This document shows positions 1-50,444 of a stretch of DNA of 50,444 bases, one piece after another (positions within the stretch are counted from its first letter, which is position 1; every line of letters starts with the position of its first letter). The stretch comes from Parcubacteria group bacterium (GTDB lineage Bacteria > Patescibacteriota > Minisyncoccia > Moranbacterales > UBA9337), in NCBI GenBank assembly GCA_041662245.1, contig JBAZSW010000005.1, positions 1 to 50,444 of the forward strand, written 5' to 3'. The notes beneath the pieces are model-generated. The model saw nothing but the letters and a program-made list of their open reading frames with translations. It was not told the DNA's origin and did not search any database. The translations under genes and the position numbers were made by a program.

Positions 1-1241
1 ATGATTTTGAAAAACTTTATGGAGATAATATAGATAATAAGGAGGAGCTGGATAAATTTTTAACGGGAGATGAAGGTAAAAGAAGCGATCCTGATTTTGA
101 CGATACTGACTCACCCAATGTTCTAAGTAATAGCTTATTGGGACAAGCTAATGACATTCATGATAATCTCTTGGATAAGTGGAGTGCTCCCATTGGCACA
201 GAAGTGATTCAGATTGCTGGTTGGGGCTTGGATACTATAGCGGGGATAAAATATGATGATTGTGATATTGTTTTTTGTCCCGATAAACTTAGTAATTTGG
301 ACAGAGAATTAATCTTTAAAAAAGATGGAGATGCTACAGTTGTTATTCCCAGTGCGATTATTATGAATGACGGAGAGATTTATTATGTAGATATGAAACT
401 CTATAATAGTTATGGTGAATTTAATAAAAACAGGGAACATGCCAATATTCTTGAAATCAATTCCCTTCAAGAATTTATCAAAAACATCTTAAATAACAAC
501 AGAGATTTGCCAAGTTATATCACTACAGTAAAACCGGAAGTTACGAATGAAGATGAAAGTCTGCGTTATCGAATGCATTCCCCAGTAGCAGTGCATCTTT
601 ATGACGAAAATAATAACCATACAGGACTCACAGATAATCTCAATCCTAATTCTGACTTAACTTACCATGAAGAAAATATCCCCAACTCCTACTACATAGA
701 ATTTGGAGAAACTAAATATCTGGGTAGTCCCAAAGATGGAAATATCAAAGTAGAATTAATTGGTGAAGACACTGGCACTTTTACCTTTGAGATAGATGCA
801 CTCAAAGGAGAGGATGTGGATAAAACTACAGTCTTTAAAGACGTACCAGTCATTAAAGATATGAAGGCAGATATAGATATATCTCAAAATATTGGTATAA
901 TGGATATAGATTGGAATAATGATGATAAAGTAGATATCACAATTAATACAGAGGAAGTAAATTCTGTACCAAAAGCTTCTTTGGAAATTCTCGAAGAAAT
1001 TATCAAGTTTTCCAAAATTAATCCAATCTTAAAAAATCTTTTTCTCAATGAGCTCAGGGTGGCTGAAAAACAAATAGCAAAAGGAAAAAATAAAATAGCA
1101 GGGCAGATACTGGAAATTTTAGAAAAACAAATTGAGACATTTAGTGATAAAAAAATGATGAAAAAGCTTAAAATCAATAAAGTTGAAGCTGAAAATCTAA
1201 TCAAAATAATCGAAACAATTCGTTTAAATTTAATTAAGTAA
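1..1241 (+). CDS. 5'-truncated secreted protein; the C-terminal part resembles a PGAP1/LCAT-type alpha/beta-hydrolase (lipase/esterase) and is followed by a helical tail
   Basis: Frame 3 is open from base 3 to TAA 1239-1241, so the track ORF 138..1241 is only the part after an internal TTG. KKDGDATVVIPSA and NREHANILE resemble the catalytic Asp (GDGTV) and His blocks of PGAP1/LCAT-like hydrolases. The last ~50 aa are reused in downstream repeats. Confidence 0.5.
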   Translation, partial: DFEKLYGDNIDNKEELDKFLTGDEGKRSDPDFDDTDSPNVLSNSLLGQANDIHDNLLDKWSAPIGTEVIQIAGWGLDTIAGIKYDDCDIVFCPDKLSNLDRELIFKKDGDATVVIPSAIIMNDGEIYYVDMKLYNSYGEFNKNREHANILEINSLQEFIKNILNNNRDLPSYITTVKPEVTNEDESLRYRMHSPVAVHLYDENNNHTGLTDNLNPNSDLTYHEENIPNSYYIEFGETKYLGSPKDGNIKVELIGEDTGTFTFEIDALKGEDVDKTTVFKDVPVIKDMKADIDISQNIGIMDIDWNNDDKVDITINTEEVNSVPKASLEILEEIIKFSKINPILKNLFLNELRVAEKQIAKGKNKIAGQILEILEKQIETFSDKKMMKKLKINKVEAENLIKIIETIRLNLIK

Positions 1242-1246
1242 AAAAT

Positions 1247-1666
1247 ATGAATTATAAAAAAAAGATTTATTGGGGGGTTGCAATTAGTGTGGGAGCATTT
1301 TTTTTAAGTATTGTCTTAGCTAAGCCGGAAATTTTTGGATTGTGTAATTATAATGACATGAAATGTATTTATAATTATATAGATATTTTTGATAGTATAG
1401 CACAATTTGTTGGATTATTTTCTATAGCATTTTTTATTATTTTTTCAATAATATTATTTTGTAAAGAGTTAGTTTTCAATTACTGGAAAAAATTTGCTAA
1501 AATATTTTTATCTGTAGCAATAATTCTAATTTTAATTACACCAACTCAATACGGAGGATTTGTTGGTATTGATAAAGAAATGGTTACTTGGGGTTTGGCT
1601 AGTTTATTTCTAATTAGTAGTCTTGGGATAATAATTTGGAAATCAATTCAGTTGAGAAAAAAATAG
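1247..1666 (+). CDS. small multi-pass membrane protein, paralog 1 of a local family (shared block VFNxWKxFA)
   Basis: ATG lies 5 nt after the upstream stop. The 139-aa product has several hydrophobic segments. KELVFNYWKKFAKIF is shared with 2065..2484 and 2518..2802, and the C-terminal LISSLGIIIWKSIQLRKK is identical to that of 2518..2802. Confidence 0.65.
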   Translation: MNYKKKIYWGVAISVGAFFLSIVLAKPEIFGLCNYNDMKCIYNYIDIFDSIAQFVGLFSIAFFIIFSIILFCKELVFNYWKKFAKIFLSVAIILILITPTQYGGFVGIDKEMVTWGLASLFLISSLGIIIWKSIQLRKK

Positions 1667-1812
1667 AACAAGTATCAATCTGGATGAGTTCGCTTTTCCT
1701 AATCATTAGCTTAGCTCTTATTATTATTTAGCAGATTAAAGAAAGAAAATCTTTGAAATAAAATAAAAACAAATTGCAAGGCTATAGCCATAGTCACTCA
1801 TTTTTTAAATTT

Positions 1813-1855
1813 AAAAGTGTCACTTTTGTCCACGTGCGACTGGATTGACACTTTT
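1813..1855. other. perfect 10-bp inverted repeat AAAAGTGTCA / TGACACTTTT around a 23-nt loop, inside the repeated spacer
   Basis: Read directly from the sequence. An identical copy lies at 2949..2991. It is followed by an unusually purine/GC-rich block (GTGGTAGTGAGGACAGGAGTGGCGTGGAGAGGAGTGAAG). Confidence 0.8.
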
Positions 1856-2053
1856 GCTGTGGTAGTGAGGACAGGAGTGGCGTGGAGAGGAGTGAAGAAG
1901 AATAAGGTGGCAGGACAAATCTTGGAAATAGTAGAAAAACAAATTGAAACATTTAGTGATAAAAAAATGTTAAATAAACTCAGAATCAATAAAATTGAAG
2001 CTGAAAACCTAATAAAAATAATCGAAACTATTCGTTTAAATTTAATTAAATAA
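1817..2053 (+). pseudogene. orphan 3' cassette: a copy of the last ~50 codons of the 1..1241 gene fused to unrelated 5' sequence
   Basis: KKNKVAGQILEIVEKQIETFSDKKMLNKLRINKIEAENLIKIIETIRLNLIK matches the tail of the upstream gene. The first ~25 codons (from GTG) have no counterpart there. It could instead be expressed as a 78-aa protein. Confidence 0.45.
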
Positions 2054-2064
2054 AAATAAAAAAT

Positions 2065-2484
2065 ATGGATTATAGAAAAAAAATATGGTTGATTTTTCTG
2101 GTAACATTATTGATAACTATAAGTGTGTATCTAAATAGATCTTTCACTTCTTTGGGTAGCTCCTTGTATTATTTTTCTTTGATATTGTCAGCTATTTTGT
2201 TTGTGATGTTATTCTTGAAAGAAGAAGTTTTTAATACATGGAAGAGATTTGCGATTATTTATGTATTTGTAGCTATGCTTATTATTAGTTTTTCACCTGG
2301 GGGTGGTGGGTTTATTCCATTCGGTTATAGAGATTTTTTTAGTTATTATTTTCCGATATCTCTATTTACAACAAGTATATTTATAACAATAAAATATATT
2401 CATAAATGGAGTCTTCCTATAATTATTTTACTTGGACATTTCGCAGGTATGATAATTTGGTATATTATTGCGGTACTCATTTGA
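2065..2484 (+). CDS. small multi-pass membrane protein, paralog 2 of the local family
   Basis: ATG lies 11 nt after the tail-cassette stop. MDYRKKIW parallels MNYKKKIY, and the KEEVFNTWKRFAIIY block is present. 139 aa, hydrophobic throughout. Confidence 0.65.
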   Translation: MDYRKKIWLIFLVTLLITISVYLNRSFTSLGSSLYYFSLILSAILFVMLFLKEEVFNTWKRFAIIYVFVAMLIISFSPGGGGFIPFGYRDFFSYYFPISLFTTSIFITIKYIHKWSLPIIILLGHFAGMIIWYIIAVLI

Positions 2485-2517
2485 GCACATTTTAAATAGC
2501 AGAGACGTAACAAGAAG

Positions 2518-2802
2518 GTGATGATTAAAAAATCAGGAAATAAATTGATAATTAGTGCCCCTTTCTTAATTTCTGTTTCTATTCTCCTTTTATTCTTTAA
2601 AGATTATGTTTTTAATATATGGAAAAAATTTGCGATTGTATTTGTGGTTATTTCGGTAGCTATTATTTCACTTGCTCCAGAAATTAGTGAAGGATTCATA
2701 GAATATAGTAAAAAATATCTCTCCTGGAGATTATCAGAATTATTTTTAATTAGTAGTCTTGGGATAATAATTTGGAAATCAATTCAGTTGAGAAAAAAAT
2801 AG
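2518..2802 (+). CDS. small membrane protein, paralog 3 (shorter; the C-terminus is identical to paralog 1)
   Basis: KDYVFNIWKKFAIVF block and the same C-terminal LISSLGIIIWKSIQLRKK. The start is GTG 2518 or ATG 2521. Confidence 0.6.
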   Translation: MMIKKSGNKLIISAPFLISVSILLLFFKDYVFNIWKKFAIVFVVISVAIISLAPEISEGFIEYSKKYLSWRLSELFLISSLGIIIWKSIQLRKK

Positions 2803-3189
2803 AACAAGTTTCCATCTGGATGAGTTCGCTTTTCCTAATTAGTAGTTTGATTCTTATTATTATTTGGCAGATTAAAGAAAGAAAATCTTTGAAATAAAAT
2901 AAAAACAAATTACAAAGCTATATCCATAGTCACTCATTTTTTAAATTTAAAAGTGTCACTTTTGTCCACGTGCGACTGGATTGACACTTTTGCTGTGGTA
3001 GTGAGGACAGGAGTGGCGTGGAGAGGAGTGAAGAAGAATAAGATGGCAGGGTAGATACTGGAAATTTTAGAAAAACAGATGGAAATGTTTAGTGATAGAA
3101 ATATGCCAAAAAAACTTAGAATAAATAAAGCAGAAGCTGAAAACCTGATAAAAATAATCGAAACTATTCGTTTAAATTTAATTAAGTAA
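2740..3189 (+). repeat. segmental repeat copy b (~450 bp), partner of 1604..2053
   Basis: Same order of parts: gene 3' end, decayed helix remnant, hairpin 2949..2991, purine-rich block, tail cassette. Confidence 0.85.
3033..3189 (+). pseudogene. degenerate third copy of the hydrolase-gene tail, with an in-frame TAG
   Basis: KNKMAG*ILEILEKQMEMFSDRNMPKKLRINKAEAENLIKIIETIRLNLIK. TAG 3052-3054 replaces the CAG of the parent copy and is in frame with TAA 3187-3189. Confidence 0.6.
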
Positions 3190-3199
3190 AAATAGAAAT

Positions 3200-9183: not shown

Positions 9184-10935
9184 ATGAATTTTAATTTAGT
9201 TACACAAGTTGAAACTTGTTACTCTTTTATACATCAGAATCAAGATTTTTTGAGGTTTGTTTATTATTCGCACATTCCTACGATTTTTATCGCTCTATCT
9301 ATAGGGATATTTGTTTTTTTGAAAGATACGAGTGCTTTGGTTAATAGGCTTTTGTTGGGAATAGCGATTACTTTTTCTTTATGGGCTTCTTTTGACCTAG
9401 CTATTTGGAACTATTACGATAGTCGATTAATAATGTTTGCTTGGTCATTGCTTGGAATTTTGAATGTTTTATTATTTATATTAAGTTTATACTTTGTTTA
9501 TGCTTTTATTGAGAGAAAAGATGTCCGGTTAAGAAAAAAAATTATACTGGGACTAGTGCTCCTTCCTGCTGTATTAATGACCCCTACTAGTTTTAATCTG
9601 ATAAATTTTGATATTGCAAATTGTCAGGCGACTGAAGGCGCTTATTTTACTGGATATTATTATTTAGTTGGTTTTTTTATAGCTTTGTGGATAATTTTTC
9701 TAGCATTTTCGAATTGTATAGAAGCTAAAAATAATTCGAAAAGACAAATAATATTACTTACAATCGGGGTAGAATTTTTTTTGATGTCTTTTTTCGCCAC
9801 AGGTTTTTTGAATAGTTATCTAGTAGGAGCAGGTTTTATTACAGATGTTGTTAGTTTTGAAATAGAACAGTATGGTCTTTTTGGTATGACATTTTTTATG
9901 GGGATGTTGGCTTATTTAATTGTAAAATATAGGGCGTTTGATATAAAGATGGTCGGAGCACAGGCTTTAATAGTGGGACTCATCGTGTTAGTAGCTTCTC
10001 AATTCGCTTTTATCCAAAACTCTACCAATAAAATTTTAAATGGAATAGCCTTGTTTTTAATAACCGTTTTTGGATATGTGCTAATTAAAAGCATAAAAAG
10101 AGAGGTGGCACAAAAAGATGCTTTGGAAGTGGCTAACTATGAGATCGGAGAAAGGAAAGATCAACTTCAGAAAATTTCCGATCATTTGGCGGTGGCAAAT
10201 GCCAAGCTCAAGGAACTGGATACTGCCAAAAGTGAATTTGTTTCAATCGTGGCTCATCAATTACAAGGTCCACCAACAACTGTGAAAGGATATACGATGC
10301 TTCTTTTTGAAAATTCATATGGAGAATTGACTCCTGATCAAAAAGAGATATTACAAAAAATATATAATGCCAACGAACAACAAATTGCTTTCGTAAATGA
10401 TTTGCTAAATGTTTCTCGTTTAGAATCAGGTCGAGTAGTCTTTGCTTTTGAAGATTGTCAGATAGAAAATGTCTGCCAAGAAGTGGTGGATAATTTATTC
10501 ATAAAATCAAAGAACAAGGGTCTTTATTTGGATTATAAAAAAGCAGATAAATTACTTCCGAAAATTTCAGTAGATATCGCAAAGATAAGAGAAGCTATTA
10601 CCAACTTAGTAGATAATGCTATAAAATACACCAAAAAAGGAGGAGTAAGTTTAACGGTTAAAATTTGTAACGAAAACAATAATAACTGTGTGGATAGTCG
10701 TCATGTTAGAATTATAGTTTCTGATACAGGAATAGGTATTCCTAGTACTGAAATACCCCATCTTTTCTCTAAATTTTCTCGAGGCAAAGACGTCAAAAGA
10801 TTAAATGCCGGAGGGACAGGCTTGGGGCTCTATGTAGTAAAAATGATAGTAAATGGCAATAAAGGAAAAGTGTGGATAGAGTCAGATGGAGAAGGCAAAG
10901 GAACAAAATTCATTATGGAATTGCCAATTGTCTAA
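9184..10935 (+). CDS. sensor histidine kinase with a multi-TM N-terminal sensor domain
   Basis: About 7 hydrophobic segments and a coiled coil. H-box SEFVSIVAHQLQGP, N-box NLVDNAIKYT, DTGIGIP and GGTGLGLYVVK. Confidence 0.9.
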   Translation: MNFNLVTQVETCYSFIHQNQDFLRFVYYSHIPTIFIALSIGIFVFLKDTSALVNRLLLGIAITFSLWASFDLAIWNYYDSRLIMFAWSLLGILNVLLFILSLYFVYAFIERKDVRLRKKIILGLVLLPAVLMTPTSFNLINFDIANCQATEGAYFTGYYYLVGFFIALWIIFLAFSNCIEAKNNSKRQIILLTIGVEFFLMSFFATGFLNSYLVGAGFITDVVSFEIEQYGLFGMTFFMGMLAYLIVKYRAFDIKMVGAQALIVGLIVLVASQFAFIQNSTNKILNGIALFLITVFGYVLIKSIKREVAQKDALEVANYEIGERKDQLQKISDHLAVANAKLKELDTAKSEFVSIVAHQLQGPPTTVKGYTMLLFENSYGELTPDQKEILQKIYNANEQQIAFVNDLLNVSRLESGRVVFAFEDCQIENVCQEVVDNLFIKSKNKGLYLDYKKADKLLPKISVDIAKIREAITNLVDNAIKYTKKGGVSLTVKICNENNNNCVDSRHVRIIVSDTGIGIPSTEIPHLFSKFSRGKDVKRLNAGGTGLGLYVVKMIVNGNKGKVWIESDGEGKGTKFIMELPIV

Positions 10936-20352: not shown

Positions 20353-20430
20353 AAAAACACTATCCTTAATTGGATAGTGGTTTTAAATGGTTGTAGATAA
20401 TGTTATATGTGCGCCGTGGGGGATTCGAAC
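20353..20430 (-). repeat. 78-bp direct repeat copy 1 (terminator hairpin, spacer, and the 3' ~21 nt of tRNA-Lys)
   Basis: Matches 20496..20574 with about 3 mismatches. Contains hairpin CACTATCC-ttaatt-GGATAGTG (20358..20379). Confidence 0.85.
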
Positions 20431-20495
20431 TCCTCACTAATCACAGATAAAAGCCCTGAAAGCTAAATCACTTTCAGCTCTCCCAACTGAACTTC
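20410..20495 (-). pseudogene. tRNA-Lys-derived pseudo-tRNA (no 5' acceptor strand, 18-nt insertion, degraded stems)
   Basis: The minus strand reads GAAGTTCAGTTGGGAGAGC (D-arm), TGAAAGTGATTTAGCTTT, CAGGG-CTTTTAT-CTGTG (TTT loop), AGGAG-TTCGAAT-CCCCC-ACGGCGC-A. There is no GCGCCGT partner upstream. Confidence 0.55.
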
Positions 20496-20574
20496 AAAAA
20501 ACACTATCCTTAATTGGATAGTGGTTTTAAATGGTTGTTGATACTGTTATATGTGCGCCGTGGGGGATTCGAAC
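20496..20574 (-). repeat. 78-bp direct repeat copy 2 (overlaps the 3' end of the intact tRNA-Lys)
   Basis: See 20353..20430. Hairpin at 20502..20523. Confidence 0.85.
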
Positions 20575-25704: not shown

Positions 25705-27384
25705 ATGTTTAATTTTCCCAGTCCTTATCCAAAAGATGAACAAGATAAAAAAATACAAAGAACTTTAGAGATAATACCTGGTATTTTAACTTGGTCAACC
25801 TTGATCGGTATGCCGGTTTTATCCTTTTTATTTCCATTGTGGGTGTCAGTTTTTATTATCGTGTTTGATATCTATTGGATACATCGAACAATTTTTATAT
25901 CCACTTATTCAATTACAGCTTATAAAAAATTATCCAGAGGAAAAAATACTGATTGGTGGGGAAGGTGTCAAAATGTAGAAGATCCTGAAAAATACGTGGA
26001 GATTTTAACAGAGAAAATTAATAATTTGAAAAAAGTACTCAAAGAAAAAATGACTTTTTTGGAAAAGAGGAAAGTAAAGAAAGAAATACGACTTTTGAAA
26101 ATGGAGTGTAGGGAAATTTCCAAATTAAAAGATCTTAAAAGTGAGATATGGGATTGGCGAAAAATTGTTCATGTTGTGATGTTGCCTACTGCCGGAGAGC
26201 CTGCAAGCGTCATTGAACCAACTATAAAAGCTATTAAAGAAAGTAATTTTCCTAATAAACAAATAATAATTCTTCTAGCCACTGAGGAGCGTGAATCAGA
26301 AGAAAAGAGATTGGAAAAGGTAGATTATTTGAAAAATAAATTTACGGGTGTTTTTCGTGATTTTTTAGTTACTACTCATATTGTGGCTGAGGGTGAAATG
26401 AAATGCAAAGCTTCCAATGCTACTTTTGCGGCTAGAGAATTGAAAAGATATCTCGAAGAAAGAGATGTTGATTTAGAAAAAGTTATTTTTTCTAATTTTG
26501 ATTGTGACAGTGTCTGCCATAAGGAGTACTTTGCGGCATTGACTTATCACTATATTATTGATCCCAAAAGATTGCAAAGATCTTATCAGCCCATCCCGAT
26601 GTATCATAATAATTTATGGGATACTAATGCTTTTGTAAGAGTAATAGTAACCAGCTCTTCTTTTTGGCATATGTTTCAGAGTACCAGAAGGGAAATGGTT
26701 ACTTTCTCGTCGCATAGTGAGCCTTTTGCAACTTTAGTTAATGTTGATTTTTGGCCAGTAAATATGATTAGCGAAGACTCTATTATTTATTGGAAATGCT
26801 TCTCTTTTTATAATGGTGACTATCAAGTTACTCCAATTTATTTGCCCATTTCTTTGGATGCGGTATTAGCTAAGACTTATTGGCAAACAATTAAAAATCA
26901 ATATTTTCAAAAACGTCGTTGGGCTTATGGTATAGAAAATTTTCCGATTATAATGCGGTCTATTTGGAAAAATAAAACTATAAAATTAACTAGAAAGCTA
27001 GGAATAGCCTTTGAAATGCTTGAGGGGCACCATTCTTGGGCGACAGCCCCTTTCATTCTTGCTTTTTTGGGTTGGATGCCACTTATTTTTGGAGGGAGCG
27101 AATTTAACGAAAGCGTATTAGCGCATAATCTTCCTTTTGTCACCAGAGGACTAATGAGTTTGGCAATGTTAGGGTTGGTTATTTCAATGTCACTTAGTTT
27201 TATATTAATGCCAATGAGGCCTAAAAAATATTCTCGTTGGAAATATTTGAATATGTTTTTTCAGTGGTTGCTAATACCGATAATTGCACCGACTTTAGGC
27301 GCGATGCCGGCGATAGATTCTCAAACTAGAATTTTAATTAAAAAATATTTTACTGAATTTTGGGTAACACCGAAGGATAAGTAA
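25705..27384 (+). CDS. processive family-2 glycosyltransferase (cellulose/chitin-synthase-like membrane synthase)
   Basis: VMLPTAGEP, NFDCDS, SEDS and QKRRWAYG (QxxRW) blocks, flanked by TM segments. Confidence 0.75.
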   Translation: MFNFPSPYPKDEQDKKIQRTLEIIPGILTWSTLIGMPVLSFLFPLWVSVFIIVFDIYWIHRTIFISTYSITAYKKLSRGKNTDWWGRCQNVEDPEKYVEILTEKINNLKKVLKEKMTFLEKRKVKKEIRLLKMECREISKLKDLKSEIWDWRKIVHVVMLPTAGEPASVIEPTIKAIKESNFPNKQIIILLATEERESEEKRLEKVDYLKNKFTGVFRDFLVTTHIVAEGEMKCKASNATFAARELKRYLEERDVDLEKVIFSNFDCDSVCHKEYFAALTYHYIIDPKRLQRSYQPIPMYHNNLWDTNAFVRVIVTSSSFWHMFQSTRREMVTFSSHSEPFATLVNVDFWPVNMISEDSIIYWKCFSFYNGDYQVTPIYLPISLDAVLAKTYWQTIKNQYFQKRRWAYGIENFPIIMRSIWKNKTIKLTRKLGIAFEMLEGHHSWATAPFILAFLGWMPLIFGGSEFNESVLAHNLPFVTRGLMSLAMLGLVISMSLSFILMPMRPKKYSRWKYLNMFFQWLLIPIIAPTLGAMPAIDSQTRILIKKYFTEFWVTPKDK

Positions 27385-31712: not shown

Positions 31713-31789
31713 GTCATTTCGACCGGATAAATTTTTGCCTGTCATGTTGAATAACATGGTACTCAAAAATTTAGAAGTGGAGAAATCTC
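31713..31789 (+). mobile_element. MITE-like dispersed element, family GTCATTTCGAC...GGAGAAATCTC (copy A1)
   Basis: About 93% identical to the reverse complement of 48152..48228. Internal hairpin CATGTTGAATAACATG. Confidence 0.7.
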
Positions 31790-31805: not shown

Positions 31806-31832
31806 GAGATATTCCGACAAGCTCGAAATAAC
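31806..31832 (-). repeat. short form of the same family (GAGATATTCC...CTCGAAATAAC)
   Basis: Both end motifs are present, in the opposite orientation to A1. Confidence 0.4.
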
Positions 31833-31917: not shown

Positions 31918-32871
31918 TTATTCTTCTATCTCTATTTTGCAAACTCTCCATTTTTGAGCTAAGTCTTTTTTAAATTTAATCTGGGCTTGGGAAAAATATT
32001 TTTTTATCAGGGGAATGATTATCTTTTTTTGTTCGGGGCTTATCTCCATTAGGATAGTAGCTCGTAGCTTGTAGCTCGTAATCAGTGATTTTATTTGGGA
32101 AAGTAGTTTGTTGTAGTGAGATAGACCATTTTGAGGGCTGTAGAGAGCGGATTTGGGTTCGTATTCTTTTACATTTTTGGCGCACGCATAGTAGATGTCT
32201 TTGGAGAGGTAGGGAAGATTGGCCAAAATAATCAGATTTGTAGCAGGTAGTTTGTAGCAGGTAGTTTGTATTTTTTTAGAAAATGGCTCTAGCAAATCGC
32301 CGTGAAGGAATTTTATTTTTTTATTTAAATTGTGAAGTCGGGCATTTTGTCTAGCGATTTTTAACGCATCTGGGGAAATATCTGTAGCGAAGCAGTTTAC
32401 AGTTTTTAGTCCACAGTTCTCAGCATGGTTCGTGGTTTTTGATTCACAGTTCACAGAATCTATGCCCCATGTTCTATGCTCCATGTTATGTGTTAGTGAT
32501 ATTATAATGTTGCCACTTCCTGTGCCGACGTCTATAACATTGATGACTGATGACTGATGACTGATGACATTCTGCAAGGCTAAATCCACCATCAATTCTG
32601 TCTCGGGGCGAGGAATGAGGGTATGCGCGTTAACTTTAAAGTTTAAGCCATAAAACTCTTTTTCTCCAAGAATATAGGCGAGAGGCTCATTTTTGAGGCG
32701 ACGATTAGCTAATAATGCTATTTTTTTAGCTTGCAGGGTAGTTAATTTATATTCAGGATGAATTAATATGAATTCCCGTTCTTTTTTTATTACGCGGGAA
32801 ATCAAAATATCTAGATCAATAGAATCTAGTTTTTTATAATAATTTTCCTTAAAGCGCTCAACTGTTGGCAT
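31918..32871 (-). CDS. prmC: release-factor glutamine N5-methyltransferase, interrupted in frame by four low-complexity repeat blocks
   Basis: LIPRPETE, VIDVGTGSGNI, ATDISPDAL and LANLPYL (NPPY position), downstream of prfA. ATG 32871 is preferred because the track start at TTG 32928 lies inside a 12-bp hairpin. Confidence 0.8.
   Translation of the reverse strand: MPTVERFKENYYKKLDSIDLDILISRVIKKEREFILIHPEYKLTTLQAKKIALLANRRLKNEPLAYILGEKEFYGLNFKVNAHTLIPRPETELMVDLALQNVISHQSSVINVIDVGTGSGNIIISLTHNMEHRTWGIDSVNCESKTTNHAENCGLKTVNCFATDISPDALKIARQNARLHNLNKKIKFLHGDLLEPFSKKIQTTCYKLPATNLIILANLPYLSKDIYYACAKNVKEYEPKSALYSPQNGLSHYNKLLSQIKSLITSYKLRATILMEISPEQKKIIIPLIKKYFSQAQIKFKKDLAQKWRVCKIEIEE
32057..32080. 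repeat. heptamer stutter GTAGCTC GTAGCTT GTAGCTC GTA inside prmC
   Basis: Read directly from the sequence. Encodes the SYKLRAT segment. Confidence 0.8.
32237..32270. repeat. 14-nt tandem repeat TTTGTAGCAGGTAG, 2.4 units, inside prmC
   Basis: Read directly from the sequence. Encodes TTCYKLPATN, just before the NLPY motif. Confidence 0.85.
32541..32568. repeat. heptanucleotide repeat TGATGAC, 4 units, inside prmC
   Basis: Read directly from the sequence. Encodes VISHQSSVI just before the SAM-binding GxGxG. Related words GATGACTGATTTCTGATGACCGATGAC lie just past the stop (31893..31919). Confidence 0.9.
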
Positions 32872-32918
32872 AAGGGTATTTGGTTGATATTCTGTTTTGC
32901 TTAAGTAATTAAAAGCGG

Positions 32919-32954
32919 AAAGCTCCAAATATAAATAAATCTATTTGGAGCTTT
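32919..32954 (-). promoter_or_regulatory. perfect 12-bp inverted repeat (AAAGCTCCAAAT / ATTTGGAGCTTT) between prfA and prmC
   Basis: Read directly from the sequence. 12-nt loop, and on the minus strand it is followed by a T-rich tract (CCGCTTTT). Confidence 0.6.
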
Positions 32955-42962: not shown

Positions 42963-43182
42963 ATTTGCTTTTAACTATTTATAAAATAAATTATAGATAG
43001 CTAATTTGTTGTATTTTACTATCTTGCTTCGACCGCGTACTAAACTCATTAATGAATTAAACGAAAAGATGCACGAACAAGTTGCTATTATTGTAGCAGA
43101 GAGGGGAGAATTATGCAATAAAATTGATGAATTATGAATTAAGAATTTGGGAATATGAGAATTTGGGAATTTAAAAAATACT

Positions 43183-43218
43183 GTCGTTGCGAAACGTTAC
43201 TCCGTCGTAGCAATCTAG
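43183..43218 (+). repeat. short dispersed-repeat variant (GTCGTTGCGAA...GTAGCAATCTAG)
   Basis: Same end architecture as the GTCAT...ATCTC family. Confidence 0.4.
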
Positions 43219-43265
43219 AATTTAATTTCTAATAACTTAATTTTCAATTTATGTACTGCAAGTGT

Positions 43266-43350
43266 GTCATTTCGACTCGACTCGCTAAAGCTACTGCGAA
43301 GCGGACTGGATAAATATTTGTACTCAAGTATTTAGCAGTGGAGAAATCTA
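43266..43350 (+). mobile_element. MITE-like dispersed element, copy A2
   Basis: GTCATTTCGACTCGACTCGC...TTTAGCAGTGGAGAAATCTA. The ends and internal ATAAAT..TACTCA..TTTAG blocks match A1. Confidence 0.6.
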
Positions 43351-43450
43351 TCGAGTTGTTAAAATTTATTAAAAAATATTTAAAAACCCCATTAAATAAG
43401 CTATAAATCGTAAATTTTGGGTTTAAAATAAATAGATTGTTTCAGGGGTA

Positions 43451-43479
43451 TTGACAAGATTTGGATAGTGTGCTATGTT
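43451..43479 (+). promoter_or_regulatory. consensus-like promoter of module 1: TTGACA, 17-nt spacer, TATGTT
   Basis: Read directly from the sequence. Confidence 0.6.
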
Positions 43480-43568
43480 CGAGTGTCGATAGGGGAGAGG
43501 GTTATTGTTGATGTCGATAATAAGCACATTCAAATTTAAAGGATTAAGGTATATTCAAACGAGGTAAG

Positions 43569-43650
43569 ATGTGATGGGAAAAATGAGTTTTTCTTGTCTC
43601 GCCATAGTTTTAACGAAGGCGGATGGATGAATTTATTTTTCCCATCGCAT
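43569..43650 (+). ncRNA. conserved long leader hairpin, module 1 (18-bp stem ATGTGATGGGAAAAATGA / TTATTTTTCCCATCGCAT)
   Basis: The two G-U pairs are valid only on the + strand. The paralogous hairpin at 44285..44343 has compensatory changes. Confidence 0.6.
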
Positions 43651-43735
43651 CCAGAATCGGAGCGACCCTCGGGAGTAACCCTAAAAGTCCCCAGCACGAA
43701 CGCTTGGGGAGAAAATTCCAAAAGGAGGAATTGCT

Positions 43736-43873
43736 ATGCACCAGAGAACAACGATGAGAAAAAATATTTTTTATTTCGCCATTGATGCCACCGGTCAGTT
43801 GGGCCCGTTCAACACCTTTATGATGAAAAAAATTCCTTCGATGCTACCGGTCCTGTCGCCCCCCTCGGCGTAG
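43736..43873 (+). CDS. candidate 45-codon GC-rich small ORF (module 1)
   Basis: SD AAAGGAGG lies 7 nt before the ATG. MHQRTTMRKNIFYFAIDATGQLGPFNTFMMKKIPSMLPVLSPPSA, TAG at 43871. The codon style is unlike the rest of the window, so it may be non-coding. Confidence 0.35.
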   Translation: MHQRTTMRKNIFYFAIDATGQLGPFNTFMMKKIPSMLPVLSPPSA

Positions 43874-44089
43874 CTACGGCCCCGTTTCTGTGCCCCCGAG
43901 AAGAGATTGAAATCTCGGGCGCACATTCATCGGCCTGATTGGATTACTGATTATATTCGCTGGACATTATTTCAGGACGCCTGAATAATGGTTGAAGGGG
44001 GATACATGAGGTAACTTACTCGGTATTTTTTACGAAGGTCCATCTGTCTCAGGTGGATATCGAAATTAAAAAATATCGGAAACACAATC

Positions 44090-44126
44090 AAAAAGGATAT
44101 TAACCTAACGGTTCAATATCCTTTTT
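44090..44126 (+). terminator. intrinsic terminator of module 1
   Basis: AAAAAGGATATT-aacctaacggttc-AATATCCTTTTT. Confidence 0.7.
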
Positions 44127-44209
44127 AATTTGATTAAAAATAAATAAAGAGTAGGCGAAACTTTGAATTTAAAATCTAAAAGGATTAGAGAAGTTTAATC
44201 GTGGACTAT

Positions 44210-44238
44210 TTGACAGCCAAATAACTTTTTGCTAATAT
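44210..44238 (+). promoter_or_regulatory. consensus-like promoter of module 2: TTGACA, 17-nt spacer, TAATAT
   Basis: Read directly from the sequence. Confidence 0.6.
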
Positions 44239-44284
44239 TAATTTAGTTATTTGAAAGAAAAAAGTTTAAAAATATTCGTGAGAA

Positions 44285-44343
44285 ATGTGACAGGGAAAAA
44301 TGATTTTTTTAGTAACGCAAAGAATTTATTTTCCTTGTCGCAT
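44285..44343 (+). ncRNA. conserved long leader hairpin, module 2 (ATGTGACAGGGAAAAATGA / TTTATTTTCCTTGTCGCAT)
   Basis: Same flanks as module 1 (ATGTGA...TCGCAT), with GATGGG/CCCATC replaced by GACAGGG/CCTTGTC. Confidence 0.6.
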
Positions 44344-44434
44344 TTGAGTCAGAGACATTTCTGATCATGACGATCAAGGGTGGAAGTATAACCGATTTTT
44401 TTTGTTGTAACCTTCGCAAAAGGAGATCACCGTT

Positions 44435-44593
44435 ATGAAACACTCATTCCCACCCACCCACCATTCAGCAATCGTGTATATCCAGGTTGAAACCCCGATC
44501 GCTGCCGGCGCAACCAACATGGAAGCGTGTGCCCTGGCCCCCACTGATGCCGTCAAGATTACCGCTCCCTTGCAGACTGGCCTGCTGATCTGA
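44435..44593 (+). CDS. candidate 52-codon GC-rich small ORF (module 2)
   Basis: SD AAAAGGAGA lies 9 nt before the ATG. MKHSFPPTHHSAIVYIQVETPIAAGATNMEACALAPTDAVKITAPLQTGLLI, TGA at 44591. GC-rich codons are atypical for this window. Confidence 0.35.
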   Translation: MKHSFPPTHHSAIVYIQVETPIAAGATNMEACALAPTDAVKITAPLQTGLLI

Positions 44594-44664
44594 TACCGTG
44601 CCGTGTAAATGTTTTTGACTTTTTTTAACTGGTATATTTTTTATACCGTATCTTTGCAGAGGAT

Positions 44665-44697
44665 GGGATACCAAGCTAACGCTAGGTATCCCTTTTT
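44665..44697 (+). terminator. intrinsic terminator of module 2
   Basis: GGGATACC-aagctaacgcta-GGTATCCC-TTTTT. The T-run is present only on the + strand. Confidence 0.75.
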
Positions 44698-44725
44698 ATT
44701 TTAAAATAAATTTAAAATTGTTGGC

Positions 44726-45167: not shown

Positions 45168-45244
45168 GTCATCCCAGAAAATAGAATTTCTTAGCGATCC
45201 GCCAGCCAGCGGAGAGCGGTAGAAATTCATTTATGTGGGATCTC
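45168..45244 (+). mobile_element. dispersed-repeat variant (GTCATCCCAG...GTGGGATCTC), copy A3a
   Basis: End motifs are of the same family, with an internal GC-rich CCGCCAGCCAGCGGAGAGCGG. Confidence 0.45.
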
Positions 45245-45250
45245 ATTTTA

Positions 45251-45303
45251 GATTCCTCCACTTCTAAATTTCTGAGTACAGAAATTTATGCGGTCGGAAT
45301 GAC
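45251..45303 (-). mobile_element. MITE-like dispersed element, truncated copy A3b
   Basis: GATTCCTCCACTTCTAAATTTCTGAGTAC...ATGCGGTCGGAATGAC matches A1/A4 but lacks the central hairpin. Confidence 0.6.
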
Positions 45304-45432: not shown

Positions 45433-45614
45433 GTGGCTAACTCGACATACACAGTGATTCATGCGAGCTAAAACGTATAAGAAGGGGAGTAGCTAGTCAC
45501 AATGCGTCAATAATTGTTTAATTTACCCTCTGCTGATGCCAAGAAATTAAATGACTTTGGCGCAATTGAGTATTAAAAGCTGGCTAGAAATAACAGCAGA
45601 GGGAGTTCTTTTTT
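45433..45614 (+). ncRNA. candidate structured RNA or leader that ends in a terminator-like long hairpin, upstream of the zf-CHC2 ORF
   Basis: Helix GTGGCTAACT/AGCTAGTCAC (45433-42 with 45491-500) and helix CCCTCTGCTG/CAGCAGAGGG (45526-35 with 45594-603) with inner GCCAA/TTGGC, then TTCTTTTTT. Confidence 0.4.
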
Positions 45615-45637
45615 AAAAATTCAATGCGAGGTGTCAA

Positions 45638-45976
45638 ATGAAAAATAGAGAAATACCTCGTTCTTATTACGATGAAGTTAAGAACGCAATTTATTGGGGT
45701 GAGATTTTGCCTAAACTTGGGATAAGATTAAAAAAAGTTAATAGAGCTGGATTGACCAGTCGTATTTGGAATTATAGGTGTAAATGTATTTTTCATAAAG
45801 AAAAAACGGCCTCACTAACATTTTTTGATAAAACAGGAACTTTTCATTGTTATGGTTGCGGAGAAAGTGGTGATATTTTTTACTTTATTTCCCGGTATTT
45901 AACAGATAATAAACGTAGCTTGCCGAGAGTTTGTAGGTGGCTAAAAAAATGTTTTAACATTCCTCTGCCTTGGTAA
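45638..45976 (+). CDS. stand-alone CHC2 (DnaG-primase-type) zinc-finger protein
   Basis: CKCIFHKEKTASLTFFDKTGTFHCYGCGESGDIFYFI matches CxxHxEKTPS...HCFGCGxxGD. 112 aa with no TOPRIM domain. SD is GAGGTG. Confidence 0.75.
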   Translation: MKNREIPRSYYDEVKNAIYWGEILPKLGIRLKKVNRAGLTSRIWNYRCKCIFHKEKTASLTFFDKTGTFHCYGCGESGDIFYFISRYLTDNKRSLPRVCRWLKKCFNIPLPW

Positions 45977-46011
45977 AAAGCTTGATATGCATCGCATAGC
46001 GAGCTTTTTTT
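45976..46011 (+). terminator. intrinsic terminator after the zf-CHC2 ORF
   Basis: AAAAGCTTG-atatgcatcgcatag-CGAGCTTTTTTT. Confidence 0.65.
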
Positions 46012-46227
46012 GTGCTAAATTGATTTAATTCGTTCCAGCTATTTAGAGGTACAACCTTGGGCACAAAAGAGGTCGGACCTCTTTAATGTGGAAGTAATTT
46101 AACTGATTTTATACTATTCGCGATGATATGTGCACTAATTGGAAATTTAGTTATTGAAAATTGAATGGAAATTGTAAATTGTGAATTGAAAATTAGTTAA
46201 CTTTACAAACTTTATAACTTTAAGAAC

Positions 46228-48027
46228 TCACAAAGTTTTCACCATATACGTATCTCGTAATCTGTATCCATTTTTTCGATAATAATTCCGCACTCCCACG
46301 CCGGAAATAACGGCGATTTTTTTTAGACCGAATTCTTCGCGAGCGATACGCTCGGCTTCAAGAATGAGTTTTTTACCCAGACCGATGTGTTGAGGTGAGT
46401 TAGCATTTTTTTTATCTATGTCTGTAAGTTTTCCATAGGTGTGAACTTCACGGATGATGGCGGAGTTTTTGAGAGCAGGGATTGTTTCTAAATTATTTGT
46501 TTGAGATTTTTCGACTTCATTATCATTTCGCTCAAGATGACATGAATGGAGAGTTTTGGAATTATAAAGCGATGAGGGGATGCGCAGACGAAGGAGGGAA
46601 TAAAGTTTTTGTTTACTCACCCCCTCTGTCCTTCGGACATCTCCCCTTCGGAGAGGGGGAGAGGATACGAATTGAAGGAAAATTTCTTTGCCACCTGAAG
46701 CGTCATAATCTATTCTGTCTAAAATTATTTTTCCCGCCTGCAACGCTGTAGCAGCTGCGGGCAGGTCATCGATTTTATATTCACCTTTAATTTCTCGGCA
46801 ACGAATGCATGGGCAGTGGGTTTGATTTTCGATAATTTGTCTGAGATTAGAAATTATTGGTCCTGCTTCAATAGAGGACATGGGGACATCGCGAATCAAT
46901 CTTTGGATGCGGGTGTAGGCAGGAATGGCTTCATTTTTAATTTTGATAATTAATTTAGCGAATTGTTTGTCAGTTAAGGCTTTATAATTTCCTTTTTTCC
47001 AAATGTCATAAAGCTCAGAATTTTTGGTAACTACGGTCGGATAAATTTTAAGCATATCAGGTTGAAAATCAGAATTAGTAAAAAGCACCTTGAACATTTT
47101 AAAATCTTTAGCAATTGTAGAACCCAGAAGCCCTGGCATCATATGATAGTTGATTTTAAAACCAGCATCTTTAAGCAACTGGGTGGCTAGGATTGTTTGG
47201 GCTACTAGATGACCGCGATTATTTTTTATTAAAACATCATCAAAGATAGATTGTACGCCTAGCTCCACTCGTGTACAACCCAGTTGTCTAAAATTTAAAA
47301 TTTCTTTTCCATCAATATAATCAGGACGAGTTTCTAAGGTTAATCCTACAATGCGGTGTTTGGCGATTTCATTTTTCTTTTGTTCTTTTGCTAACTTGAG
47401 ATCTCTCGACTCCGCATTCTCTCCGTTCGAGATGACAATCCAAGGGTCTTTTGTTTCATGCTTTATGCTATGTGTTCTATGTTTGGGATAATCGTTGGCG
47501 GCGCGAAAACAATCGGTAATAAATTTTTTTTGGTAAGTTTTAGAAAAATAGGAAAAAGTTCCACCCATGATGATTAATTCAATTTTTTCGGTAGAGTGTC
47601 CGTTTAATTCTAAGGCCAGTAAGCGATTTTGAACTTGATTATAGGCGTCAAATTTATGCATAATGGCGCGCATCACAGCGGGCTCATTGGAGAGATAACT
47701 TTTGGGCATGTTTTTTTCCGTAGGGCAAAAAATGCATCTTCCAGGACAGGCAGAAGGTTTAGTAAGAACAGCAACCACGGCCACGCCAGATTGAGTACGA
47801 ACGGCTCGTGAAAGCATCGCTTTTTCTAAGATTATATTCTTTTTAATTTTTTTGTTTAAAAGTAAATTATTATAAATTTCTCGCAGATCAGCATTGGTGG
47901 GCTGGGGGATTTTATGTTCGCCGCAAAACTTCTTTTTAAAATTCAAAAATTTATCAGGATTTTTAAAAGATAATTTGACAGCCTGAGTTATTAATTCTAT
48001 ATGATTAAGATCGGGAGTAGTCTTCAT
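46228..48027 (-). CDS. elp3: Elp3-like radical-SAM/GNAT enzyme (tRNA U34 modification family) carrying several in-frame repeat insertions
   Basis: CPGRCIFCP cluster, IMGGTF, GLTLETRPD, RVELGVQS and a C-terminal GNAT (HIGLGKKLILEAERIA, ISGVGVRNYYRKNGY). Confidence 0.85.
   Translation of the reverse strand: MKTTPDLNHIELITQAVKLSFKNPDKFLNFKKKFCGEHKIPQPTNADLREIYNNLLLNKKIKKNIILEKAMLSRAVRTQSGVAVVAVLTKPSACPGRCIFCPTEKNMPKSYLSNEPAVMRAIMHKFDAYNQVQNRLLALELNGHSTEKIELIIMGGTFSYFSKTYQKKFITDCFRAANDYPKHRTHSIKHETKDPWIVISNGENAESRDLKLAKEQKKNEIAKHRIVGLTLETRPDYIDGKEILNFRQLGCTRVELGVQSIFDDVLIKNNRGHLVAQTILATQLLKDAGFKINYHMMPGLLGSTIAKDFKMFKVLFTNSDFQPDMLKIYPTVVTKNSELYDIWKKGNYKALTDKQFAKLIIKIKNEAIPAYTRIQRLIRDVPMSSIEAGPIISNLRQIIENQTHCPCIRCREIKGEYKIDDLPAAATALQAGKIILDRIDYDASGGKEIFLQFVSSPPLRRGDVRRTEGVSKQKLYSLLRLRIPSSLYNSKTLHSCHLERNDNEVEKSQTNNLETIPALKNSAIIREVHTYGKLTDIDKKNANSPQHIGLGKKLILEAERIAREEFGLKKIAVISGVGVRNYYRKNGYRLRDTYMVKTL
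46503..46541. mobile_element. 39-nt GAGAT...GATGAC element inserted in frame in elp3 (copy 1)
   Basis: GAGATTTTTCGACTTCATTATCATTTCGCTCAAGATGAC, read as CHLERNDNEVEKS. Confidence 0.6.
46620..46659. repeat. 40-nt GC-rich nested palindrome inside elp3
   Basis: CCCCCTCT-GTCCttcGGAC-aTCTCCccttcGGAGA-GGGGG, encoding PPLRRGDVRRTEG. Confidence 0.7.
46733..46765. repeat. 33-nt module CCCGCCTGCAACGCTGTAGCAGCTGCGGGCAGG inside elp3
   Basis: 29/33 identical to 4648..4680 (intergenic, inside the MITE-like element). Encodes LPAAATALQAG. Confidence 0.7.
47408..47446. mobile_element. 39-nt GAGAT...GATGAC element inserted in frame in elp3 (copy 2)
   Basis: GAGATCTCTCGACTCCGCATTCTCTCCGTTCGAGATGAC, read as VISNGENAESRDL, which is a different element frame from copy 1. 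Confidence 0.6.
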
Positions 48028-48151: not shown

Positions 48152-48228
48152 GAGATTCCTCCGCTTCTAAATTTTTGAGTACCATGTTATTCAACATGAC
48201 AGGCAAAAATTTATACGGTCGGAATGAC
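48152..48228 (-). mobile_element. MITE-like dispersed element, copy A4
   Basis: Its reverse complement is about 93% identical to 31713..31789. Confidence 0.7.
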
Positions 48229-50202: not shown

Positions 50203-50444
50203 GGGCGTATAGCTCAGTTGGTTAGAGAACGCTCGCCACGGCGAGTAATGACAAGGTTATCGAAGTTTTAAAAGTTAAAGTAGTTTACAGTTATGGGCGT
50301 ATAGCTCAGTTGGTTAGAGAACGCTCGCCACGGCGAGTAATGACAAGGTTATCGAAGTTTTAAAAGTTAAAGTAGTTTACAGTTATGGGCGTATAGCTCA
50401 GTTGGTTAGAGAACGCTCGCCACGGCGAGTAATGACAAGGTTAT
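50203..50444 (+). repeat. perfect 92-bp tandem repeat, 2.6 units to the window end; each unit starts with a tRNA 5'-half-like segment
   Basis: Units start at 50203, 50295 and 50387. GGGCGTATAGCTCAGTTGGTTAGAGAAC gives an acceptor and D-arm, followed by a GCTCGCC-AC-GGCGAG hairpin and non-tRNA sequence. There is no T-arm and no 3' acceptor. Confidence 0.8.

Follow-up and report, generated by a model that had tools for sequence, protein, structure and literature searches.

A REP-like hairpin repeat probably inserted in frame at two sites of an Elp3 gene in Candidatus Moranbacteria

The Rickettsia palindromic element RPE-1 of Ogata and colleagues reportedly measures ∼100-150 bp, encodes 30-50 amino acids and occurs in Rickettsia only; it is said to lie in frame in conserved protein genes, where it is translated, falls in surface regions of the protein and is patchy among orthologues. 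Cyanobacterial small dispersed repeats are likewise sometimes found in frame within open reading frames (ORFs). [quoted passage not shown] Repetitive extragenic palindromic (REP) sequences fall into two superfamilies, GTAG- or CGTC-tagged (Di Nocera, De Gregorio and Rocco 2013, PMC3733652). The CGTC superfamily, reported from 5 phyla in 2013, includes dRS3 of Neisseria and RPE-4 and RPE-6 of Rickettsia conorii; it is defined by an unpaired CGTC tag (with TGTC and CCTC variants), an 8-9-bp stem whose positions 1 and 2 are complementary A-T, a loop of 4-5 nt, with exceptions noted, and a 3-nt unpaired tail of consensus CCA. Its members frequently form inverted dimers, often heterodimers, and are mainly intergenic, with occasional in-frame intragenic copies, sometimes two per gene; they have no associated transposase gene, and many of them have been argued to act as RNA (PMC3733652). 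Here we analysed a 50,444-nt stretch of DNA (the window; GenBank assembly GCA_041662245.1, contig JBAZSW010000005.1; GC content ∼32%) from an uncultured groundwater bacterium of Candidatus Moranbacteria (Patescibacteria), in which two 39-nt segments, E1 and E2, lie inside the gene for Elp3, the radical-SAM/GNAT enzyme of tRNA U34 cm5 modification. E1 and E2 are, with high probability, two copies of a single repeat, short, non-coding and able to form a hairpin, whose entry into the coding sequence of Elp3 took place at the DNA level. The gene and the two copies are as follows.

46228..48027, minus strand: Elp3 gene, an intact ORF of 599 aa that hosts the inserts
46503..46541, minus strand: E1, GAGATTTTTCGACTTCATTATCATTTCGCTCAAGATGAC, at site D; residues 496-508 (C496-S508), peptide CHLERNDNEVEKS
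47398..47436, minus strand: E2, at site A; residues 198-210 (V198-L210), peptide VISNGENAESRDL
Predicted insert junction peptide: DPWIVISNGENAESR

The first-pass annotation of the window had described E1 and E2 as the same 39-nt element present twice and translated in two different phases. Its position for E1 was exact; for E2 the sequence was exact, and the place given, 47408..47446, has to be moved 10 nt to the left. The two segments, both 39 nt long, align without gaps and are identical at 27 of the 39 positions, and the phases do differ (GTC ATC TCG AAC... in E2, (T)GT CAT CTT GAG... in E1). A statistical scan, which the annotation had named as a possible refutation, placed the match above chance: with E1 as query, E2 was the sole other place in the 50-kb window that reached at least 27/39, against 0.01 expected per shuffled window, and with E2 or the orthologue-derived consensus as query such a match was seen in 0 of 200 shuffles. 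An all-against-all scan inside the Elp3 gene gave a weaker result (5 pairs, where shuffling gave 0.33 on average and 9 at most), so that the pairwise similarity of E1 and E2 is by itself moderately convincing and the copies in orthologues are decisive. E2 has 4 mismatches to the orthologue-derived consensus and E1 has 12, compared with 15-17 for the best matches in shuffled windows, which points to E1 as a decayed, AT-drifted copy at the orthologous site and to E2 as a fairly fresh one. The predicted RNA hairpin has a stability of -9.7 kcal/mol in E2 and of -1.3 kcal/mol in E1, where the fold is lost. By reading of the sequence, no stop codon interrupts the consensus 39-mer in any of its three forward frames, nor in two of the reverse ones.

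The comparison with orthologues settled that E1 and E2 are the same element. We compared the DNA of three orthologous genes, L001 to L003, with their codons threaded onto the protein alignment; L001 comes from the NCBI metagenome-assembled genome GCA_049287345.1. L001 carries one copy at each of the two sites occupied in the window: GTCATCTCGAGCGTAGCGAATGCGGAGTCGAGAGATCTA at site A, translated as VISSVANAESRDL, and GTCATCTCGAGCGCAGCGAATGCGGAGTCGAGAGATCTA at site D, translated as CHLERSECGVERS. These two copies are identical at 38 of 39 nucleotides, are read in different phases and encode unrelated peptides, for which an origin at the nucleic-acid level is the sole explanation. The earlier proposal of a DNA-level insertion tolerated by the protein, whose ORF is intact, is therefore borne out. 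The sister-genome comparison that had also been proposed revealed a patchy presence. L002 is 94% identical to L001 in coding DNA, yet it has no site-A copy, and L003 has no site-D copy; among the 120 best homologues the ATCTCGAG-armed 39-mer is present in P0001-P0006 alone (6/120). A copy with the same arms lies outside any long ORF in the assembly that contains L001 (locus L017). In a further orthologue, L128, the first units at sites A and D are identical at 26 of 27 nucleotides by our own count. Between genomes, the site-A copies of L001 and L003 agree at 38/39 positions (P ∼4e-4) and the site-D copy of L001 agrees with the site-A copy of L003 at 39/39 (P ∼3e-5), while the gene-wide DNA identity is 76.6%. 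The copies at 10565-10603 and 11361-11399 of L001 and at 841-879 of L003 are thus 38-39/39 alike and far more conserved than the coding DNA around them; this near-identity could reflect recent insertion, conversion or selection.

The element belongs to a repeat family of wide distribution. We scanned species-representative genomes with the pattern GTCATCTCGA-N(10-40)-TCGAGAGATCT and obtained at least 118 loci in many phyla; the copy counts that follow refer to the matches listed. Represented among the listed loci are Bacteroidales, Pedobacter, Bifidobacterium, Pirellulales, Clostridia, Treponema, Chloroflexota, Terriglobales, Saccharibacteria, other Patescibacteria and Moranbacteria. A single unit measures 27-59 nt, and the copies share the architecture GTC-AT-CTCGA / GCGNA / variable apical hairpin / GRAG / TCGAG-AG-AT / CT. 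Since the outer stem is fixed by the search pattern, it is uninformative on covariation; the inner pairs, examined in 32 distinct 37-nt copies, do covary (pair 12-26: CG 24, UA 3, UG 3; pair 16-22: GC 24, AU 7; pair 17-21: CG 14, UA 14, UG 3). Of 126 listed copies from other genomes, 94 have a T directly before GTCAT, 26 a C, 4 a G and 2 an A; in E1, E2 and all copies of the window this base is T. Of 129 listed copies, 25 sit within a stretch that runs on each side for 50 codons or more without a stop; most copies therefore lie outside long ORFs and are probably intergenic. An inverted partner was found no more than 130 nt away for 63 of 126 listed copies. At the Moranbacteria loci an inverted unit, GAGATTTCTCC...GTCGAAATGAC, follows 15-35 nt after the unit and is of the same subtype as the intergenic copies of the window.

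Composite copies (L005, L009, L016, L036, L059, L066, L090, L100, L107 and L112), mainly from Bacteroidales, carry a tandem duplication that takes in ∼10-12 nt of the flank upstream and the 5′ arm (GTCATCTCGAGC); it precedes a 27-nt core unit, which has a ∼6-nt loop in the Bacteroidales composites; this duplication may be a footprint of the copying mechanism. Regular arrays of units were also observed, with 4 copies every 167 nt at 6775-7324 of L072 (Terriglobales), and with pairs of copies at a distance of 168 nt in L056 and of 81 nt in L008.

Within the window, a 5-bp signature scan with a shuffle control was used, as a strict regular expression for a 7-bp stem gave too much noise at this high AT content and did not pick up the intergenic copies. 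The scan returned 7 matches against 0.77 expected, in agreement with the earlier statement that the two segments share their ends with an intergenic GTCAT...ATCTC family. One match is E2, one, at 26000-26054, has an AT-only stem and is probably due to chance, and five lie outside any long ORF:

31713..31789, plus strand: family copy GTCATTTCGAC...GGAGAAATCTC, intergenic between convergent genes, with a decayed inverted partner at 31806-31832
43266..43349, plus strand: family copy GTCATTTCGAC...GGAGAAATCT, outside long ORFs in an ORF-poor 1.7-kb region
45168..45244, plus strand: family copy GTCATCCCAG...TGGGATCTC, intergenic, left half of an inverted doublet, tag outward
45250..45303, minus strand: family copy GTCATTCCGACCGC...GGAGGAATCT, intergenic, right half of the 45168-45303 doublet
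48152..48228, minus strand: family copy, intergenic between the Elp3 start and a divergent methyltransferase gene

The copy at 48152..48228 is multicopy in the source metagenome, with a contig word depth of 463 against a baseline of ∼31. Rfam searches of the window and of four repeat-rich loci returned tRNAs and no family matching the element, and literature searches with the exact element sequences returned coincidental primer matches only.

We then set the element against the known repeat systems. It resembles RPE-1 in being inserted in frame in a conserved gene and in being patchy among orthologues, and differs from it in length (39 nt, outside the 100-150 bp of RPE-1), in its Patescibacteria host and in a sequence unrelated to the Rickettsia consensus, so that the resemblance is functional. 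The analogy drawn in the first-pass annotation to Rickettsia palindromic elements turned out to be closer than it had claimed in another respect, as tag and stem are those of the superfamily that holds RPE-4 and RPE-6 (PMC3733652). Like CGTC REPs, the element has an unpaired tag, (T/C)GTC, a stem that starts with AT, inverted dimers and intragenic copies. Its 5′ arm ATCTCGA pairs with the 3′ arm TCGAGAGAT, with AT at both ends, and the stem counts 7 bp plus a 2-nt bulge or, in the RNAfold register, 9 bp with a bulged A, a length that agrees only approximately with the definition. Inverted dimers are represented by half of the listed copies, as given above, by the Moranbacteria doublets, by the doublet at 45168-45303 and by doublets inside Elp3 orthologues; our description of doublets as having tags outward is not mapped onto the HH/TT terms of PMC3733652. 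Unlike CGTC REPs, the element has a structured loop formed by an internal loop with G-A-rich motifs and an apical hairpin of 2-4 bp, and a 2-nt bulge in the 3′ arm. A short tail is present; it reads CTC in the window and CTA in L001 and L003, against CCA in the consensus of the superfamily, and some site-D units of orthologues do end in CCA (L128). The hosts of the element are Patescibacteria, and the same arms occur in many phyla beyond the 5 reported in 2013. Because tag, AT-stem, dimers and intragenic copies agree while the loop length differs and the tail reads CTC or CTA, we file the element as what appears, from its sequence, to be an extended-loop form of the CGTC/TGTC-tagged REP kind, and it may share a common family with RPE-4 and RPE-6. 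The literature searched contained no report of REP or RPE elements in Patescibacteria.

Other assignments fitted less well. With GTAG REPs, REPINs and BIMEs the element shares a tag-plus-hairpin design, inverted doublets of two subtypes and a concerted within-genome similarity; unlike them it has a GTCA(T) tag and arms shared across phyla, the arms of GTAG REPs being species-specific. We rejected identity with the GTAG REP/REPIN-RAYT system because the tag, (T/C)GTC-AT, is wrong, and no RAYT was seen among the window ORFs checked. The element also differs from QMITEs in sequence, in having no TA termini and in falling short of 100-400 bp. A MITE was rejected because no target-site duplication is seen and the size, 27-59 nt, is wrong, although in doublets the outer ends, GTCAT...ATGAC, are inverted. 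A small ribozyme such as the hammerhead, suggested by the GUC tag, was rejected as its core motifs are absent on inspection and Rfam gave no match; integron attC sites, CRISPR repeats and IS200/IS605 ends were rejected on inspection, their terminal motifs not fitting.

The identity of the host protein is clear. The 599-aa ORF, whose length the first-pass annotation had given correctly and judged long, matches Pfam Radical_SAM and Radical_SAM_C, and solved Elp3 structures in the PDB match it with E ∼1e-109. It has the radical-SAM cysteines C94, C98 and C101, invariant together with the QHxGxG region in a 30-sequence alignment, and a C-terminal GNAT/KAT domain (acetyltransferase) with the acetyl-CoA motif; Pfam and the PDB matches, the latter in three stretches, agree. 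Its nearest database relatives are the Elp3 proteins of Candidatus Moranbacteria / Patescibacteria, at no more than 77% identity and with lengths of 516-621 aa. In alignments of 30 and of 120 sequences Elp3 has five variable sites, loops in which inserts are patchily distributed among orthologues and which are shared by several unrelated short repeats:

Site A: after FRAANDY, in the radical-SAM domain
Site B: after EIKGEYKxxD, in the central linker
Site C: after FLQFVS, in the KAT domain
Site D: after LLRLRIP, in the beta3-beta4 region of the acetyltransferase domain
Site E: before PQHIGLG

Besides E1 and E2, the window gene has further extra segments at or next to four of these sites:

47437..47490, minus strand: rest of the site-A extra loop, residues 180-197, YPKHRTHSIKHETKDPWI
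46732..46764, minus strand: site-B insert, 33 nt, GC-rich, peptide LPAAATALQAG
46618..46659, minus strand: site-C insert, a 42-nt GC-rich palindrome, peptide PPLRRGDVRRTEGV, CCCCCTCTCCGAAGGGGAGATGTCCGAAGGACAGAGGGGG region; a GC island in a 32% GC genome
46543..46569, minus strand: SLYNSKTLH, residues 487-495, nine codons specific to the lineage and immediately upstream of E1; eight are gapped in the L001-L003 codon alignment

The remainder of the site-A loop is matched by H.T..I.H.TK-like peptides in some orthologues and has weak DNA similarity to an insert in the PrmC gene (below); it is possibly another short repeat. The inserts at sites B and C are absent from L001-L003. The site-C insert, with similar GC-rich inserts in 8 of 120 orthologues and no second copy of the palindrome in the window, is from a different repeat family than E1 and E2. 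The site-B insert is from a third family: in 8 orthologues LPAxATALQAG stands at the same site, and 6 others have it before PQHIGLG instead. Variants of greater length, LPAML...(20-25 aa)...AMQAG, resemble a split element carrying cargo. Elp3 orthologues without inserts have ∼520-540 aa, and ∼70 of the 599 residues of the window protein are therefore repeat-derived, from at least three repeat families. The remaining excess over the 459 aa of Dehalococcoides mccartyi Elp3 (DmcElp3) is the N-terminal region, so that with sites B and C also contributing the two 39-mers are not the whole explanation of the length.

The inserts coincide with gaps in the structural comparison, a check that had likewise been proposed. 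Alignments of the window protein to the Elp3 of Methanocaldococcus infernus and of D. mccartyi (6IAZ, 5L7J) split into three stretches; query residues 180-207 stand opposite 3 residues (in M. infernus) and query residues 455-521 opposite 27. In an AlphaFold2 model (mean predicted local distance difference test score, pLDDT, 74; predicted template modelling score 0.77), residues 184-210, 417-423, 460-470 and 489-512, which are the four insert regions, are coil with pLDDT below 50, each between confident helices or strands. E1 and E2 add 13 amino acids each to loops that, according to this model, are probably flexible. The patchiness among orthologues and the absence of a counterpart in the two structures uphold the annotation's view that the segments are not a conserved protein feature. 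Site D and the acetyl-CoA blocking loop of Elp3 are different places: the latter, located at Dmc residues 390-406 (PMC6367351), corresponds to query ∼531-547.

An insert is present at site D in 58 of 120 orthologues, and many of these inserts begin with CH[PSL][EG], which is TGTCAT read in one phase, with differing arm subfamilies:

Site-D insert type CHLE, from ATCTCGAG arms
Site-D insert type CHPELVSGS...LKQVQHD
Site-D insert type CHSGLDPES...LDSRFHGND
Site-D insert type CHSREGGNPE

Several site-D inserts are inverted doublets with outer ends TGTCAT...ATGACA (DNA checked in L128, L133, L137 and L162), and unrelated repeats, e.g. PPPFKGGGWEGV and GGSTSIMEVEPP, share the same loop. Site D holds GTCAT-type inserts in 29 of 120 orthologues, and site A in 8 of 120, there in two phases and at two positions; placed on a neighbour-joining tree, this occupancy takes at least 19 state changes for site D and 8 for site A. 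The alleles in which site D is empty (TCGGAAAATAAC...) are similar to the right end, in decayed form, of filled doublets (GGGAATGAC...), and the ancestral state is therefore uncertain. As far as sequence comparison goes, such a hot-spot pattern agrees with repeated insertion, or gene conversion, out of the pool of repeats in each genome, and disagrees with a protein feature kept by conservation.

Elp3 is not the only gene concerned. In the PrmC/HemK gene at 31918-32928, ∼26 extra residues follow GTGSG in comparison with Thermotoga HemK (THNMEHRTWGIDSVNCESKTTNHAENCGLKTVN; 32395-32493, minus strand). Part of this insert is like the site-A upstream peptide of Elp3 and part is like a AAATTGTGAATTGAAAA-type low-complexity repeat; because it resembles repeats, in-frame repeat colonisation in this genome is not limited to Elp3.

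From these observations we propose the following course of events. A repeat with an unpaired (T/C)GTC tag, an AT-start stem, a variable apical hairpin and a 3-nt tail would have entered Elp3 at the DNA level. E1 and E2 would persist because 39 nt make 13 codons, because no stop occurs in the three forward frames and because the landing sites are loops, which AlphaFold predicts poorly; the encoded peptides would be passengers, with E2 still near the family consensus and E1 drifting towards AT with its hairpin gone. The single-stranded hairpin may be copied or transposed in trans by an enzyme of the host or of a mobile element that recognises tag and hairpin; by analogy with RAYT acting on GTAG REPs, we give such a mechanism about an even chance. 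Gene conversion or recombination between copies would add homogenisation, and selection would leave only the in-frame copies in permissive loops, a survivorship filter. The replacement of the whole site-A loop between L001 and L002 indicates that recombination between alleles contributes.

Several results weigh against insertion of a REP-like repeat as the explanation. The predicted stability of the hairpin is not exceptional compared with shuffles (z ∼-1.4), and a 39-mer with ATCTCGAG arms was found outside Elp3 neither in the 50-kb window nor in the 21.7-kb L001 locus. We saw no target-site duplication beside E1, E2 or the copies of L001, whose flanks read T...A. We found no clean pair of filled and empty sites with identical flanks; between L001 and L002 the whole site-A loop differs, which looks more like allele replacement than like simple insertion or excision. 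When contigs of two groundwater metagenomes were compared with the gene, none joined the flanks without E1 or E2, many other joints stemming from related Elp3 genes and hence being uninformative. The loop of the element is also at variance with the CGTC REP definition, with 17 nt between the arms of the 39-nt unit, including the covarying apical mini-hairpin, instead of 4-5 nt, and none of the eight window ORFs run against Pfam was a transposase candidate. Taken as a whole, REP-like repeat insertion that persists in permissive loops is nevertheless the explanation that we hold to be highly probable.

The strongest competitor, although we think it doubtful, is that the patchiness stems mainly from homologous recombination swapping loop alleles among related Moranbacteria after one or a few ancient insertions. 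Besides the L001/L002 pair, 94% identical and different over the whole site-A loop, this is suggested by the L002 loop NIKTLKHKS, which matches the loops of P0014 and P0016, and by the empty site-D alleles that look like decayed doublet ends. The GTCAT-type units at site A, however, occur in two phases, at two positions and with different arm subfamilies, and copies within a genome (L001, L128) are more alike than orthologous copies, so that new insertions or conversion from the genome's own family are needed. A nucleic-acid function inside the gene, through an mRNA structure with an effect on stability or on the pace of translation, or through a DNA site for a recombinase or structural protein, could have kept the copies in place, and the embedded hairpin might have an RNA- or DNA-level role in Elp3 expression. 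Such a function would agree with the excess conservation of the site-A copies over the gene (38/39 between L001 and L003, against 76.6%), with the covariation of the apical pairs through U-G intermediates and with the argument that REPs of this type act as RNA (PMC3733652). We consider it unlikely, as the hairpin is lost in E1, which argues against an essential role, and is largely lost at site D of L122, most orthologues have no element, and the near-identity could equally come from recent insertion or gene conversion.

The remaining explanations have little to recommend them. If the two segments were ancestral Elp3 features kept by selection on the peptide, with an incidental DNA similarity, one could understand why the window, L001 and L003 have their site-A copies at one position and in one phase, and why the same holds for the site-D copies of the window, L001, L002 and L122, a sharing that is compatible with a common ancestor of a small clade. 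The unrelated peptides encoded by 38/39 identical DNA in L001, the absence of the segments from most orthologues and from the archaeal and Dehalococcoides structures, their low-confidence coil and the presence of the same DNA unit outside long ORFs in many phyla make this very improbable. A chance match within an AT-rich gene is still harder to defend and is refuted by the orthologue data: 27/39 is a modest score, shuffled all-against-all scans gave up to 9 pairs and the pair is absent from the repeat listing of the window, but the query-based expectation is at most 0.01 per window and an independent consensus matches both orthologous sites. Nor do we give credence to artefacts of metagenome assembly. 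The source is a metagenome in which related repeats are multicopy; against this, the ORF is intact and in frame, the same sites are filled in independent NCBI, Logan and JGI assemblies, and one contig of run X1 (45600-47710) and one of run X2 (46302-46651) cover these parts of the window without differences. Beyond insertion as such, it is conceivable, though we think improbable, that the (T/C)GTC-AT hairpin constitutes one ancient and still-active class, with identical 10-11-nt arms in more than 10 phyla, that is homogenised in each genome by a conserved enzyme and repeatedly re-enters or overwrites the same two Elp3 loops in Patescibacteria, the loops being renewable landing pads.

Other features of the window lie around the gene and its repeats. 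Directly 3′ of the Elp3 stop, a low-complexity stretch at 46070-46257 (GAAATTGTAAATTGTGAATTGAAAATT...) has a contig word depth of 400-1180, compared with ∼31 in its flanks, in the two groundwater metagenomes, and marks a very abundant intergenic repeat of the community. Between the repeat doublet and Elp3, a stand-alone 112-aa ORF at 45638-45976 (plus strand) consists of a DnaG-type CHC2 zinc ribbon alone (Pfam PF01807, E 1e-12); L001 has an unrelated 344-aa ORF at the corresponding place. The 1.7 kb at 42963-44725, between RRM and NUDIX genes, contain no ORF of at least 100 aa, GC-rich patches at 43641-43907 and 44480-44592 and the family copy at 43266-43349, and gave no Rfam match at E<=1; the RRM-NUDIX gap is only ∼380 nt in L001. 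We rejected this region as a pseudogene of the neighbouring 344-aa ORF of L001, to which it has no similarity. Right after tRNA-Leu and tRNA-Val, three perfect tandem copies of 92 nt at 50203-50444 start like the 5′ half of a tRNA (GGGCGTATAGCTCAGTTGGTTAGAG...) and run off the end of the window; neither ARAGORN nor Rfam called a tRNA in them. In a tRNA cluster, a 78-nt direct repeat at 20353-20574 (97% identity, with a spacing of 144) overlaps the 3′ end of a tRNA as well as a hairpin that resembles a terminator. At 1086-3192 there is a tandem duplication with a 1136-nt period, including a 300-nt block of 96% and 159-nt blocks of 86% identity, which suggests recently duplicated small paralogous genes.

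Translation of REP/RPE-type repeats as parts of genes is a known phenomenon, and the present case belongs to it. REP-like hairpins that colonise conserved enzymes in frame are familiar from Rickettsia and a few Proteobacteria; the proteins of Patescibacteria, whose genomes are streamlined, are shaped in this way too. Such inserts inflate protein lengths, make spurious 'lineage-specific' loops in alignments and structure predictions, and seed recurring peptides (CHxE..., ...QVQHD, ...RFHGND) in many Elp3 orthologues. Identical arms across distant phyla, together with within-genome homogeneity, point to a mobilising or homogenising activity; to our knowledge, none is known for CGTC-type REPs. 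What is distinctive in the present case is the rich hot-spot pattern in Elp3 and the very broad distribution of the repeat among phyla.

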